DNA of 64,000 bases from Erysipelotrichaceae bacterium (GTDB lineage Bacteria; Bacillota_I; Bacilli_A; Erysipelotrichales; Erysipelotrichaceae), in NCBI GenBank assembly GCA_045544415.1, contig JAZPYW010000108.1, positions 141-64,140 on the forward strand, read 5' to 3'. Under the pieces are notes generated by a model. It did no database searches and was not told where the DNA came from. It saw only the letters and a program-made list of their open reading frames with translations. The position numbers were made by a program, and so were the translations under genes. Shown in pieces: positions 51,882 to 58,995 of the stretch; position 1 is the first letter of the stretch; each line of letters begins with the position of its first letter.

Positions 51882-51957
51882 GCCCGAATAGCTCAGTCGG
51901 TAGAGCATCCGGCTGTTAACCGGCAGGTCACAGGTTCGAGTCCTGTTTCGGGCGCCA
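51882..51957 (+). tRNA. tRNA-Asn (GTT)
   Basis: GCCCGAA acceptor pairs with TTCGGGC. Anticodon loop CTGTTAA. T-arm ACAGG TTCGAGT CCTGT. Encoded CCA. Confidence 0.9.
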
Positions 51958-51964
51958 TTGTTGT

Positions 51965-52041
51965 GGCAAGTTGGTGAAGCGGCTTAACACACCGCCCTTT
52001 CACGGCGGCATTCACGGGTTCGAATCCCGTACTTGTCACCA
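51965..52041 (+). tRNA. tRNA-Glu (TTC)
   Basis: GGCAAGT/ACTTGTC acceptor. Anticodon stem-loop CCGCC CTTTCAC GGCGG. T-loop TTCGAAT. Encoded CCA. Confidence 0.9.
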
Positions 52042-52046
52042 TCTCT

Positions 52047-52122
52047 GATCCCTTAGCTCAGCTGGCAGAGCAACTGACTCTTAATCAGTGGGTCCAGGGT
52101 TCGAATCCCTGAGGGATCACCA
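52047..52122 (+). tRNA. tRNA-Lys (CTT)
   Basis: GATCCCT/AGGGATC acceptor. ACTGA CTCTTAA TCAGT anticodon arm. CAGGG TTCGAAT CCCTG. Encoded CCA. Confidence 0.9.
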
Positions 52123-54917: not shown

Positions 54918-55586
54918 TTAATAACCGCTAGCGTAGTCGAAGATGTTCGTGTTATCGAAATGAACGGAATCGTTTTTCTCGAAAGTTACGTAATCTTCGT
55001 TTCTTTCATCGAGTACTTTTTCTACTTTTGTGATGTTGCCGCGATACAGTTCGTAATTATTGAAATTGCCCTGAAGGACAAGCCCGTTGCCGTAATAGCC
55101 GTAGTACTCGTTGGCAACGTCTTTATCGATAACGAATTCGATCACACTTCCATCGCTGGTGTGATAACAGCCGCTTCCGTCCGTATCGACATCTGCTTTT
55201 TCATCGATCTTGACTACCGGAAGAACAACGCCGGAAGAAAGCGTAATGTAGTACCTGTCGCCGATCACGCCATAGTACGATCCCAAAGCGACACCGATGA
55301 AACCGTCTTTATCATATAAGAAGCCGGTTTCTTCATCGACAGTCATATAATCCTTAATGAACCAGTACTGAATGGAGTCGGTCGCCGTTACAGCACGATA
55401 ATCCATATATGTCTTAGCGCCGCTGACACTGCATACGCCAACATCTTCTCCTTTGAACTCTTTCTGATAATCATAAAGATCATCAATGTCAAAAGGCTTC
55501 TCATCATCTCCGGAATCAGAAGAATCGAACGCACAAAGACTGACTGCAGTCAACAACAATAAGAGGATCAAAACAATCTTTTTCAT
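54918..55586 (-). CDS. Putative lipoprotein of unknown function
   Basis: 222 aa. MKKIVLILLLLLTAVSLCAF is a signal peptide with a lipobox-like SLC. Confidence 0.6.
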   Translation of the reverse strand: MKKIVLILLLLLTAVSLCAFDSSDSGDDEKPFDIDDLYDYQKEFKGEDVGVCSVSGAKTYMDYRAVTATDSIQYWFIKDYMTVDEETGFLYDKDGFIGVALGSYYGVIGDRYYITLSSGVVLPVVKIDEKADVDTDGSGCYHTSDGSVIEFVIDKDVANEYYGYYGNGLVLQGNFNNYELYRGNITKVEKVLDERNEDYVTFEKNDSVHFDNTNIFDYASGY

Positions 55587-55625: not shown

Positions 55626-55653
55626 TTGACAACTCCAACAGGGATGTTATAAT
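55626..55653 (+). promoter_or_regulatory. Strong sigma-A-type promoter for the tRNA Ile-Ala pair
   Basis: TTGACA (55626-55631), 16-nt spacer, TGtTATAAT extended -10 (55645-55653). Confidence 0.7.
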
Positions 55654-55676: not shown

Positions 55677-55753
<77 letters not shown>

Positions 55754-55763
55754 TATCCTTTCT

Positions 55764-55839
55764 GGGGCATTAGCTCAGCTGGGAGAGCACCTGCTTTGCA
55801 AGCAGGGGGTCAGCGGTTCGATCCCGCTATGCTCCACCA
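55764..55839 (+). tRNA. tRNA-Ala (TGC)
   Basis: GGGGCAT/ATGCTCC acceptor with the G3:U70 identity pair. CCTGC TTTGCAA GCAGG. Encoded CCA. Confidence 0.93.
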
Positions 55840-55851
55840 TATTTTGAAAAT

Positions 55852-55877
55852 ACGCCTGAAAAAAGGCGTTTTTTTCA
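55852..55877 (+). terminator. Terminator after tRNA-Ala
   Basis: ACGCCT gaaaaa AGGCGT followed by TTTTTTT. Confidence 0.75.
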
Positions 55878-55967
55878 TTCTATGCAATAATGCACACAAT
55901 GTAACGCCTTTTTCAGGAAGGTATAGCGGGATCAGTGTATTTCTCCCAGCTGAGCGGTAAATTGTTT

Positions 55968-56038
55968 GTGGGCCTGAAAATCAATTTCACCCCTTCGCTT
56001 ATCAAGCTGGTGAAAATGTTGGACCCCGGCTACAGGCC
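55968..56038 (-). pseudogene. Degenerate tRNA-Ile-like sequence (inverted relative to the real tRNA-Ile)
   Basis: The minus strand reads GGCCTGTAGC-21nt-GCTTGATAAGCG-17nt-TTCAGGCCCAC. These three blocks match the tRNA-Ile 5' acceptor/D start, anticodon loop and 3' acceptor in the same order and with similar spacing. The D and T arms are not conserved. Confidence 0.55.
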
Positions 56039-56039
56039 T

Positions 56040-56260
56040 TTTGCATGACGGGCAAACGCGTGCTCGTGCCAACGAGCACTGCATTGCCCGTTGGCCATTT
56101 TGTAGAACCCTATCGTGCGACCCGTAACCGGGAAGTCCATTCAGCCCGTGATGCGTCCAATCAGAAGATCATGGACTTCCCTGTTTTACGAGGGCGCACA
56201 CCGGTCATCCAACGGCGTTTAAATACTTTCTGATGCCTTCTCTGCGGATATTTACTGCTG
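56040..56260 (-). ncRNA. Candidate TnpB-associated omega RNA (reRNA) scaffold / IS right end
   Basis: GC-rich and highly structured 3' flank of tnpB. 11-bp stem GGGAAGTCCAT (56130-56140) / ATGGACTTCCC (56171-56181). Nested ACGGGCAA (56048-56055) / TTGCCCGT (56084-56091) around GTGCTCG/CGAGCAC. The ends are approximate. Confidence 0.5.
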
Positions 56261-57353
56261 CATTGATGTCGCGATCGTGCGTACTCCCGCATCTTTCGCA
56301 TGTCCACACTCTATCGTCCAGTTTCAGTGTTTTATTGATTGCACCGCAGCTGCTGCATTTCTTGGTCGATGGAAACCATTTGTCGATCATGACCAGTTTC
56401 TTCCCTCTATCTTCCATTTTGTATGACAGCATTCTTATAAATATTCCATAGGAGTTATCATATGTTGCTTTGGCGAGATTGCGTTTCTTTGCGATCGAAG
56501 GCATGTTCAGGTCTTCCACGCAGATAATATCGTATTTATCTGCCAGATCTGTTGAAAGTTTATGAAGGTAATCATTTCTTCTGCTTGCTATATTTCGGTA
56601 TGTTCTATTCAAGACCTCCCGTCTCTTATAGTAATTCATACTTCCTTTCTCACATCTTTTCACAGCAGCGATCAGTTTTATCAGCTTCTTCTCTTTTTCA
56701 CGGTAAAAATGCGGAATGTTGATCCGGTTCCCGCCGTCATCTACAAACAAGTGCGGCGAAGAATAATCCAAGCCGACAGAATTCCGGACATCCAGTTGAC
56801 GTCTGATCTCTCCCTGTCCGAACTCCAGAAGTACTGATGCATGATACTCTCCGATATTATTGCGGGTGATCGTTATGCTGCGCACACGGGAATAAGGCGG
56901 GAGAGGACGGTGATAATTCATTTTGACTTTTCCTACTTTCGGCAGGAATATGCTGTCGCCCACAAAAATACGCCCGTTATAGTTTGATGTGACGTACATC
57001 GGATGGTAGATCTTGTCGCTGTTCTCCTTCCGTTTTCTGCCGGTGACCTGGAACAGCGCATTCAGCAGCGCTGAGATATCGCTTTGCTGAAGTTCCGGAT
57101 TCTCCCTGATGTAACGGTAAAGTACATCTTTCAGCAGCGGTTCGAATTTCTTTCCTTCTCTTTCTTCTCTTATATACAGGCTCTTAACAAAATTCGCATC
57201 ATGAATGATCGAATTGATCATCGCCTTTTGCGCTGCGTCCGGTTTGATAAGGTATCGATAGGATCTGTTTCTGCTCATTGTCTTTATTGCCCCTACATTA
57301 TCTTTATTTCCGGGCAGTTCGATGATACCTAATTTATTTTTTAATTTTTGCAT
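56205..57353 (-). CDS. tnpB: TnpB (IS200/IS605-family OrfB) RNA-guided endonuclease
   Basis: 382 aa. RuvC residues in VGLDYSS, ICVEDLN and HDRDINAAVNI. Zinc ribbon CSSCG...CERCG. The true start may be the internal MSRNRSYRYLIKPD (57278). Confidence 0.88.
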   Translation of the reverse strand: MQKLKNKLGIIELPGNKDNVGAIKTMSRNRSYRYLIKPDAAQKAMINSIIHDANFVKSLYIREEREGKKFEPLLKDVLYRYIRENPELQQSDISALLNALFQVTGRKRKENSDKIYHPMYVTSNYNGRIFVGDSIFLPKVGKVKMNYHRPLPPYSRVRSITITRNNIGEYHASVLLEFGQGEIRRQLDVRNSVGLDYSSPHLFVDDGGNRINIPHFYREKEKKLIKLIAAVKRCEKGSMNYYKRREVLNRTYRNIASRRNDYLHKLSTDLADKYDIICVEDLNMPSIAKKRNLAKATYDNSYGIFIRMLSYKMEDRGKKLVMIDKWFPSTKKCSSCGAINKTLKLDDRVWTCERCGSTHDRDINAAVNIRREGIRKYLNAVG

Positions 57354-57419
57354 GTTTTTTTGCAGAAGACAGTGCGCGAGGTGAATAACGATGCGTTTCC
57401 CGCATATGAAGGTAGTCCC

Positions 57420-57446
57420 AAAAGAAAAAACAGAGAATACTCTGCT
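57420..57446 (-). terminator. Terminator after rarA
   Basis: CAGAG (57431-57435) aata CTCTG (57440-57444). The minus-strand RNA continues UUUUUUCUUUU. Confidence 0.55.
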
Positions 57447-57476
57447 TTTTCGAATCGATCGATATGTATCAAACTG

Positions 57477-58832
57477 CTATTGTTTTTCAGTCTTCTCCTG
57501 ACGGCGGCGGTCTTCTTTCCATTTGCGGATCGCTTCATAGCGGTCTTTGAATTTCGACTCATTGCCCTGCGTTGTCGGATGGTAGTACTGTTTTCCTGCT
57601 AAAGTCGGCGGAAGGCATTCCATCGTTGTCAGTTTTTCCCTGTAATCGTGCGCATATTGATAGCCTTTTCCATAATTCAGTTCTTTCATAAGACGCGTTG
57701 GAGCGTTTCGAATGATCAATGGAACAGGTTCCGCAAGCATTCCCCGAGCGTCCGCTGCCGCTTCGGCATAGGCGACATCACAGGCGTTGGATTTCGGAGC
57801 TATGGACATGTAGATGACTGCTTCCGTAAGATGAACGGTACATTCCGGCATCCCGATAAAATGGCAGGCATGATAGGCATTGATAGCTACATTCAGCGCA
57901 TTGGTGTCCGCAAGGCCGATGTCTTCGGATGCGAATCTGGTGATCCTTCTGGCAACATAAAGAGGATCTTCCCCTGCTTCCAGCATACGGGCAAGCCAGT
58001 ATACAGCTGCATCCGGATCTGAATTGCGCATGGATTTGTGCAGCGCGGAAATGATATTGTAGTGTTCTTCTCCATCTTTATCGTAAAGCAGCGCCTTCTT
58101 GGATAAAGTATCTTCGATCATCTCCCGGCTGATATGGATGCATCCTTCTTTATCAGTCTCGCCGTTGATCACCAGCATATCCAGAGCTGTCAAAGCGCTC
58201 CGGGCATCGCCGTTAGCGTATTCGGCGATAAACATCAGATCTTCTTCACGGATCTCCACCTTTTCCCTGCCGAAACCTCTCGGATCTTTCAGAGCCCTCT
58301 CCAGCAGTTTTCTGATATCTTCTACGCTCAGCTCTTTTAATACGAAAACTCTGCAGCGTGACAGCAAGGCATTATTCACTTCAAAAGAAGGGTTTTCCGT
58401 CGTAGCTCCGATCAGGATGATAGATCCCTTTTCAACAAAAGGAAGGAAGGCATCCTGCTGCGCCTTATTGAAACGGTGTATCTCATCCACGAAGACGATC
58501 GTACGGATACCTAAAGCGCGGTTCTTGTCGGCATCCTCCATGACTTTGCGGATCTCTTTGATCCCGGATGTAACTGCGGAGAATGTGATAAATTCCGACT
58601 TGGTCTTTTCGGCGATGATACGGGCCAGCGTCGTTTTGCCGACACCCGGAGGACCCCAGAAGATCATAGAAGAGATGCGGTCGCTTTCGATGATCTTGCG
58701 CAATATCTTGCCTTCACCGATCAGATGCTCCTGTCCGGCGAATTCGGAAAGGTCACGCGGACGCATACGATATGCCAGTGGTTCGTTTACTTCATCTTCA
58801 AATAATGACGGCTGATCCGAGGGAAATCTCAT
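57477..58832 (-). CDS. rarA: Replication-associated recombination protein A (AAA+ ATPase)
   Basis: The ORF track begins at 58937. The ATG at 58832 (MRFPSDQPSLF) lies 6 nt after AAGGAGG. FWGPPGVGKTTLARIIA (Walker A), VFVDEIHRFNK (Walker B), MgsA C-terminal domain. Confidence 0.9.
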   Translation of the reverse strand: MRFPSDQPSLFEDEVNEPLAYRMRPRDLSEFAGQEHLIGEGKILRKIIESDRISSMIFWGPPGVGKTTLARIIAEKTKSEFITFSAVTSGIKEIRKVMEDADKNRALGIRTIVFVDEIHRFNKAQQDAFLPFVEKGSIILIGATTENPSFEVNNALLSRCRVFVLKELSVEDIRKLLERALKDPRGFGREKVEIREEDLMFIAEYANGDARSALTALDMLVINGETDKEGCIHISREMIEDTLSKKALLYDKDGEEHYNIISALHKSMRNSDPDAAVYWLARMLEAGEDPLYVARRITRFASEDIGLADTNALNVAINAYHACHFIGMPECTVHLTEAVIYMSIAPKSNACDVAYAEAAADARGMLAEPVPLIIRNAPTRLMKELNYGKGYQYAHDYREKLTTMECLPPTLAGKQYYHPTTQGNESKFKDRYEAIRKWKEDRRRQEKTEKQ

Positions 58833-58995
58833 AAACATCCTCCTTTCCGATGCTGTATAGCACTTCTTACTCTTTATTCTACTCTTAACTAGAATTTGAT
58901 TCAAGTTTCTGAACAGTCTTATTCCCGTCCCACTCATATGCCTCGATTGCTTATTTGTTGCTCATGCATCTTTTTCTATCTATAATATAAATAGT

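Follow-up and report, generated by a model that had tools for sequence, protein, structure and literature searches.

On the minus strand of the window, by which we mean the whole 64,000-nt stretch of Erysipelotrichaceae DNA analyzed here, a tnpB gene is followed by a structured RNA region and then by a string that resembles a degenerate, inverted tRNA-Ile. This look-alike sits where the scaffold of the TnpB-associated omega RNA would be expected to meet its guide, and the locus thus raises the question of whether the string belongs to the RNA or is a leftover of the DNA beside it. The initial annotation had named three options, namely an insertion sequence (IS) next to or within a second tRNA-Ile gene that then decayed, a retained tRNA-like 3' module on the omega RNA, and a guide with partial identity to tRNA-Ile genes. 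Our analysis favors the first. With a probability of about 0.8, the look-alike would be a tRNA pseudogene, the 5' member of a second Ile(GAT)-Ala(TGC)-terminator unit that is convergent with the genuine one. It is an ordinary feature overall, with one unexplained detail, the pairing between its first nucleotides (the tail) and the scaffold. The features are collected in Table 1. G000 is the genome of the window (assembly of 2.15 Mb), and other G numbers denote the genomes compared with it.

Table 1. Features of the region around tnpB and the tRNA-Ile/tRNA-Ala genes, in window coordinates.
Feature	Position	Strand	Basis or remark
miaA	53979-54881	minus	
orf222 (222 aa, no Pfam match)	54918-55586	minus	
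Promoter of the genuine Ile-Ala pair, consensus TTGACA-16-TATAAT	55626-55653	plus	
Genuine tRNA-Ile(GAT)	55677-55753	plus	ARAGORN; Rfam 68 bits
Genuine tRNA-Ala(TGC)	55764-55839	plus	ARAGORN; Rfam 65.8 bits
Intrinsic terminator of the genuine pair	55852-55876	plus	
Terminator remnant of the dead pair (CCTGAAAAAGGCGTT)	55917-55903	minus	Aligns to the genuine terminator
Pseudo-tRNA-Ala	55923-55955	minus	D-arm piece 55955-55942; T-arm/acceptor piece 55933-55923
Pseudo-tRNA-Ile (look-alike)	55968-56038	minus	Alignment to genuine tRNA-Ile; genome-wide block counts
Predicted omega RNA scaffold	56020-56215	minus	Downstream of the tnpB stop; 5' limit may fall inside tnpB
Tail (first 19 nt of the look-alike)	56020-56038	minus	Candidate 3' strand of a closing/pseudoknot helix, alternatively guide
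Long hairpin with UUGG loop	56048-56091	minus	Folding
Scaffold segment S3 (UGGACUUCCCGGUUACGGGUC)	56119-56139	minus	Pairs with the start of the look-alike; RNAalifold, duplex folding
tnpB (382 aa as longest ORF)	56205-57353	minus	Pfam OrfB_IS605 and Cas12f1-like TNB
rarA/mgsA-type ATPase gene	57477-58937	minus	

The look-alike lies on the tnpB strand, 167-237 nt past the tnpB stop codon (56207-56205). Three blocks on the minus strand, GGCCTGTAGC (56038-56029, 10 nt), GCTTGATAAGCG (56007-55996, 12 nt) and TTCAGGCCCAC (55978-55968, 11 nt), are identical to the genuine tRNA-Ile, the sole tRNA-Ile(GAT) that ARAGORN found in the assembly, and they follow each other in tRNA-Ile order, separated by 21 and 17 nt. 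Across the 2.15-Mb assembly, the genuine tRNA and the look-alike contain the only two copies of the 12-mer and of the 11-mer, one copy each, and the 10-mer occurs four times. Local alignment of the inverted remnant to the local tRNA pair gave a z of 7.1 against shuffles. The match to tRNA-Ile is far beyond chance, and the alignment and the genome-wide counts confirm the position, order and near-native spacing of the blocks given in the initial annotation. Its further claim that the D and T arms had been replaced by unrelated sequence holds for most of both gaps, except that GGGGT of the variable region survives.

No tRNA was recognized at this position. The look-alike was not called by ARAGORN, the Rfam tRNA model found no match on the minus strand of 55968-56038 even at E values up to 10, and a genome-wide search with RF00005 (covariance-model threshold, 29 bits) returned 37 matches, none of them at the look-alike. 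The minimum free energy (MFE) of its fold is -21.1 kcal/mol (z -0.83), with 37 of 200 shuffles as stable, and the fold is a rod-like hairpin with neither D nor T arm. The remnant is without tRNA function. In place of the D and T arms stand ATTTTCACC (56016-56008, minus) and GGTGAAATT (55993-55985, minus), which are mutually complementary, so that a rod with the anticodon loop at its tip can form. This complementarity is specific to the window and is absent in G012; templated correction within the hairpin could explain it. A likeness of the replaced segments to helix strands of G016 was also seen and was ascribed to the tRNA's own GGGGT. In the close strain X1, represented by one contig of 733 nt with 16 differences, none of the differences listed falls within 55968-56038; a further 26 close-strain differences stand outside those listed.

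The resemblance continues beyond the look-alike. In the alignment, the mirror image extends past 55968 into pieces of tRNA-Ala and then into a remnant of the terminator, in native order. The D-arm piece GCTCAGCTGGGAGA is an exact 14-mer and the T-arm/acceptor piece GATCCCGCTAT an exact 11-mer in common with the genuine tRNA-Ala, and the anticodon arm between them has been deleted. The terminator remnant was not called in the terminator search. Since the Ala pieces and the terminator remnant follow the look-alike, the whole Ile-Ala-terminator unit is mirrored. This duplicate is inverted and convergent with its parent, with about 50 bp from terminator to terminator. The promoter search found a perfect consensus for the genuine pair, none for the remnant, and none between tnpB and the remnant, and this missing promoter suggests that promoter loss may have come first and silencing of the second pair may have followed. 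Both these continuing remnants and the tail-scaffold pairing described below had been overlooked in the initial annotation. A further tRNA cluster of the window (Asn-Glu-Lys, 51882-52122) lies 4 kb from tnpB.

The same arrangement was sought in relatives. The gene orf222 was present in 50 of the 58 genomes of the genus; 32 loci were examined, 19 of which carry the genuine pair beside orf222. At these 19 loci, the DNA beyond the terminator was aligned in inverted orientation to the local pair and scored as z against shuffles. The z was at least 5 at six loci (G000, G012, G009, G004, G019 and G050) and at most 1.0 at 12, and G001 had a z of 1.8, its remnant being full-length but weak in the pairwise alignment. 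Two of the significant remnants, those of G019 and G050, are in loci without tnpB, and these TnpB-less relatives retain the tRNA 5' block within the remnant. Counted by neighborhood, a remnant is found at all five loci with an adjacent tnpB (four significant, one weak) and at 2 of 14 without. The remnants of relatives were compared by pairwise alignment, and a multiple alignment of all of them was too gappy. The comparison with relatives lacking the IS, which the initial annotation had proposed, thus revealed a decayed tRNA unit, close to the outcome that it had named as speaking against its more exotic options.

Two relatives are especially informative. The syntenic locus of G012 has the order tnpB, RNA region, pseudo-Ile, pseudo-Ala, terminator, convergent genuine Ala and Ile, orf222 and miaA; its TnpB is 65% identical to that of the window at the amino acid level, and its RNA region is 80% identical. 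In G012 the remnant has retained the T arm and lost the 3' acceptor, whereas the opposite is true in the window. These opposite losses point to one fuller ancestral copy that decayed separately in the two lineages. In G016, assembled from two contigs with a 23-nt overlap, the order is tnpB, an AT-rich spacer of about 370 nt, an intact Ile-Ala pair, its terminator, an inverted pseudo Ala/Ile (score of 77 vs. 28 +/- 5) and orf222. Here, the copy on the orf222 side is dead and the copy on the tnpB side is alive.

Some of the loci hold additional material. In G009 (L010, 2760-3150) and at locus L067, the omega RNA region and the remnant are separated by about 400 nt, in which the opposite strand carries an apparent small ORF. 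Two versions of the locus are present in G001 (L067 = G001:C171 and L008 = G001:C99), and L067 is 97.7% identical over 1978 nt to L010 of G009 (G009:C18); G001 may be a mixed MAG. The second G001 copy was considered for defining the right end and was uninformative, being nearly identical to the G009 locus.

The mirrored Ile-Ala-terminator unit, the remnants that also occur without TnpB, and the reciprocal decay in G016 together lead to the reading of a decayed duplicate. The simplest history would be a genus ancestor with two intact, convergent Ile-Ala pairs, one of which was redundant and decayed by substitutions and small deletions; the copy far from orf222 would have decayed in G000 and six others, and the other copy in G016. 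As is usual for tRNA pseudogenes, there is ordered residual identity to a neighboring gene beyond chance, no tRNA fold, lineage-specific deletion and reciprocal copy loss, together with remnants of the neighboring unit and homologues that decay independently, also without tnpB. Unlike such pseudogenes, the copy is inverted and convergent with a parent about 50 bp away, and its identity is unusually patchy. This patchiness, with perfect blocks set against unrelated gaps, speaks against the pseudogene reading, since uniform neutral decay predicts otherwise. In addition, the resemblance is clade-specific: the remnants of the G000/G012 clade look like the tRNA-Ile type of that clade, and those of a 14-species clade like the type of theirs, which needs either two duplications or concerted evolution.

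The last point would suit an inverted duplicate that arose repeatedly, through fold-back repair of breaks that TnpB had induced at the tRNA locus. The clade-matched remnants stand in two parts of the orf222 tree (a single-gene tree with a midpoint root, from which G009 and G016 are absent), and the excess of remnants at loci with an adjacent tnpB fits as well. We nevertheless consider this origin very improbable. Related species are not independent samples, remnants occur without TnpB in G019 and G050, and G016, with both pairs present and the TnpB-proximal one intact, points to an old and ordinary two-copy state. Still less credit is due to the view that the omega RNA has kept the look-alike as a working tRNA-like 3' module, serving RNase P/Z processing or stability, for instance. 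It is true that the window retains the acceptor halves and the anticodon loop, and the complementary replaced segments make a rod-like hairpin possible. This second option of the initial annotation is nonetheless already largely refuted by the unremarkable folding energy, by the failure of Infernal to match a tRNA, and by G012, which retains other parts of the tRNA and, having lost the 3' acceptor, cannot form an acceptor stem. The same remnant without TnpB in two relatives, and the dead tRNA-Ala and terminator that follow it, add to this. Among other copies of this TnpB element, where the initial annotation had suggested looking for the same tail, G012 alone has the arrangement, and related TnpB elements are without such a tail. 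The decayed duplicate therefore remains the preferred reading of the look-alike.

The unexplained detail concerns the omega RNA. The scaffold region folds with a z of -4.68, none of 200 shuffles being as stable, and no Rfam family matched within it. Although conservation is absent from the linkers before the tail, CAUGCAAAA and GUACCGAAA, the 22-mer at 56039-56018 is identical in G012 at 21 of 22 positions. RNAalifold paired 13 bases of the tail with the internal scaffold; four of these positions differ in G012 and all keep the pairing, as does one further change in the G012 tail. By duplex folding, 56139-56119 and 56038-56020 form 19 bp at -34.8 kcal/mol, an energy reached by none of 500 dinucleotide shuffles of the tail and by none of 1000 GC-matched genomic 22-mers; the corresponding duplex of G012 has -32.8 kcal/mol, reached by 1 of 500 shuffles. 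This S3-tail helix is part of the MFE fold in G012. The MFE fold of the window pairs S3 with an upstream strand instead, and enforcing the S3-tail helix costs 8.1 kcal/mol. In the MFE folds of G001, G009, G004 and G016, a closing helix of about 20 bp stands at the corresponding place, and its 3' strand ends where the similarity between elements ends; in G013_C72, the fold differs and the flank is unrelated. For the long hairpin at 56048-56091, G012 shows two changes that preserve pairs of an alternative pairing. Five elements of a third clade are alike in sequence as far as ...GUAGUUCAC, which comes immediately after a stem-loop; judged by eye, its last bases can pair with an upstream GUGGAC.

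The tail-scaffold pairing is real in the sequences and statistically strong, and the role proposed for it is that of a candidate. The odds are about even that the dead tRNA, through its first 19 nt (56038-56020), has come to supply the 3' strand of a guide-proximal closing or pseudoknot helix. The strong duplex, the pair-keeping changes of G012, the closing helices of relatives and a parallel in ISDra2 argue for this. The window has GUCCA (56024-56020), which is able to pair with UGGAC (56139-56135) and is followed by A at 56019; in the ISDra2 RNA, as described in PMC10097598, nt -5 to -3 pair with nt -103 to -105, and the guide comes after an A at -1. If the tail is a helix strand, the first guide nucleotide would be near 56018, and the guide would continue into what is left of the anticodon loop. 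Against the helix stands its cost of 8.1 kcal/mol in the window; moreover, this omega RNA type exists in only two sequences, and all of the changes between them are one-sided and of the wobble type, with no full double compensation within the helix. A non-exhaustive literature search brought up no description of an omega RNA scaffold containing a tRNA remnant. We know of no precedent for a helix strand made of flanking DNA.

It is somewhat unlikely, by our assessment, that the element instead follows the canonical IS605 layout, ending just before 56038 and using as its guide the 16-20 nt at the start of the dead tRNA (56038 to about 56019), with the complementarity to S3 either incidental or guide-sequestering. 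Such a layout would explain why tRNA homology begins exactly at 56038, with the 5' block kept in TnpB-less relatives, and why the 22-mer is conserved when the linker preceding it is not; the MFE fold of the window, which lacks the S3-tail helix, agrees with it. However, 19 bp of complementarity between a guide and its own scaffold would occlude the guide, the unconserved linkers before it offer no candidate pseudoknot strand, and relatives have the closing helix at exactly that position. In addition, the 22-mer has no other target in G000 or G012 at up to three mismatches. In G000, a 20-mer starting at 56017 likewise found itself alone, and the 22 other matches of a 16-mer starting there all have three mismatches, none of them lying in a tRNA-Ile gene. 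The third option of the initial annotation, a guide partly identical to tRNA-Ile, is compatible with the position alone.

Whether block 1 is tRNA-derived at all can also be asked. It might be the element's own terminal helix strand, equal by chance to nt 2-11 of tRNA-Ile, in an element inserted inside the D arm of a second tRNA-Ile whose true 5' part was lost from the left-end side. The closing helices of relatives are intrinsic to the element, including that of G013_C72 with its unrelated flank, and in G004 recognizable tRNA homology starts only at about nt 12, directly after the helix. That strings of this kind are found in these RNAs is shown by the scaffold of G001, which has AGGCCTGTAG in a different hairpin. 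We regard this origin as markedly improbable, because it needs a match of 10/10 at near-native spacing (19-22 nt vs. 20 nt in the native tRNA), for which the chance, estimated and not computed, is roughly 1e-5 to 1e-3. Moreover, no tRNA 5' fragment with up to two mismatches was found upstream of tnpB at any of six loci, and G001 has a full remnant including the 5' end, downstream of and apart from its helix. It is hardly credible that TnpB with this guide acts on genuine tRNA-Ile genes, by cleavage or repression through partial identity. The single tRNA-Ile(GAT) gene of the assembly does carry at its 5' end the 10-11 nt that stand beside the scaffold, and the protein has long been kept intact; yet the identity to the genuine gene stops after those 10-11 nt, the genuine gene and the remnant have different upstream sequences, and the assembly, outside of which the rRNA operons with possible further tRNA-Ile genes lie, has no site with up to three mismatches. 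On the sequences compared, there is no sign that the look-alike targets tRNA-Ile genes.

The protein itself appears functional. The TnpB of the window matches PF01385 (63.3 bits) and PF07282 (79.9 bits), both above the cut-offs, and aligns over residues 26-374 with ISDra2 TnpB (8h1j; E value of 2.2e-42). Its residues D196, E280 and D362 align with the ISDra2 motifs GVDVG, TEHL and HDRD (RuvC triad) and are presumably the counterparts of the catalytic residues of ISDra2 TnpB. The D-E-D triad and four cysteines in two CxxC pairs are present in all seven TnpBs compared (G000, G012, G001, G009, G004, G016 and G013), and with its RuvC triad and zinc finger intact the protein is functional-looking. 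Among the 23 tnpB changes listed for a strain about 98% identical, 21 are synonymous and 2 non-synonymous, and in the one contig from an RNA library, which covers 56909-57159 inside tnpB and does not reach the look-alike, all six changes are synonymous. Judged by these counts, tnpB is under purifying selection. The longest ORF starts 28 codons (57270-57353) before the homology to the TnpB of G012, whose own ORF starts there, so the true start may be a later ATG, with homology to G012 from residue 28-29.

The surroundings of tnpB differ from those of a complete IS200/IS605 element, which would have a Y1 tnpA inside, left- and right-end hairpins and defined ends. No Y1 tnpA adjoins tnpB, and three Y1_Tnp genes are on other contigs of G000. 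Neither a left end nor a target-adjacent motif (TAM) could be defined, as the left side could not be aligned between the window and G012 and has different flanking genes. The boundary of the right end likewise escaped definition. A TTGAT, the TAM of ISDra2, at about 57470-57474, just past the rarA stop, was rejected as too likely by chance. Synteny is kept downstream of tnpB and breaks on its left side (57354-57476 in the window), where each species examined has a different upstream gene, rarA-type in the window and non-rarA in the others (tblastn; L057, L008, L010 and L011). In a third TnpB clade (L017, L018, L019 and L021), a conserved ORF, Y1 TnpA-like by eye, abuts the tnpB start upstream.

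Apart from G012, no further copies of this type of TnpB and omega RNA were found. It is single-copy in its own genome, and the 58 genomes of the genus contain it in G000 and G012 alone. Among 401 genomes of the order, G000 and one 26-nt match in G295 were retrieved; the latter was judged a chance match, the DNA there being without TnpB or tRNA. Weak matches in G032 and G029 comprise 22-30 nt in a T-rich terminator spacer. Public genome contigs yielded two loci, of which one is G012 and the other is 46% identical, and metagenome contigs yielded four at 34-50% identity. In a tree of 15 TnpBs, the proteins of the window and G012 form one clade; a second clade unites the copies at this locus in G001, G009 and G004 with G013_C72 from elsewhere, and the copy of G016 stands apart. 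TnpBs of other clades thus occupy the same locus in four further species, making three clades over six species. The path lengths of TnpB are similar to those of orf222 between the same species, which suggests a long vertical residence of TnpB at the locus; independent insertions at a favored site are an alternative that would also give a shared locus. Over the 18 TnpB loci L008-L025, seven have a tRNA within 1.5 kb, four of them at the Ile/Ala locus and the others beside a Lys-Glu-Asn cluster (L014), a tRNA-Thr (L015) and a Gly-Lys-Gln-Tyr cluster (L016).

Several known systems share features with this one. TldR proteins are nuclease-dead relatives of TnpB. The protein of the window resembles them in being fixed at a single locus, in the conservation of its guide region and in its apparently vertical inheritance, but its D-E-D triad is intact and no target was found beyond the locus itself. 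Similarity to ISDra2 TnpB lies in the aligned protein, its RuvC D-E-D and its zinc ribbon. A structured RNA region follows the stop codon, a candidate long-range pairing and an A come before the presumed guide, much as in the ISDra2 RNA, and the hairpin at 56048-56091 is in a position that would match stem 4 of the ISDra2 omega RNA by analogy (PMC10097598). In contrast to ISDra2, the window has a single copy with no adjacent tnpA and no definable left end or TAM, and its guide-proximal helix would have about 19 bp instead of about 5, with a 3' strand that coincides with a tRNA remnant. The solitary tnpB with its RNA region, in a genome with three Y1 tnpA genes elsewhere, is also reminiscent of the IS1341-type solo TnpB elements named in PMC13565253. 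The difference is that tnpB is here syntenic in a sister species, with TnpBs of other clades at the same locus in further species. A shared syntenic locus gives the look of a long-term resident rather than of a recently mobile copy.

We put forward as tentative, and rather doubtful as a whole, a scenario in which a catalytically intact TnpB has been resident since before the species of the genus diverged and the 5' end of a dead tRNA-Ile has become part of its guide RNA, as the 3' strand of the guide-proximal helix, so that the system would possibly be domesticated and co-evolving with its flank, not mobile. Were this so, the scaffold would consist partly of host DNA, and the guide would read into the anticodon-loop remnant. 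The 19-bp pairing of the scaffold with ancestral flank, if it is true, would bear on where the scaffold ends and the guide starts in omega RNAs of non-model systems. The finding on the look-alike itself is a clean negative, in that a striking tRNA-like string at a TnpB scaffold-guide junction is most probably a dead tRNA gene and not an RNA module, and such remnants are to be expected where elements adjoin duplicated tRNA genes. Intact TnpBs of three clades stand at one tRNA locus in six species, and their divergence, which is similar to that of the neighboring gene, suggests that TnpB may have resided there vertically for a long time under purifying selection.
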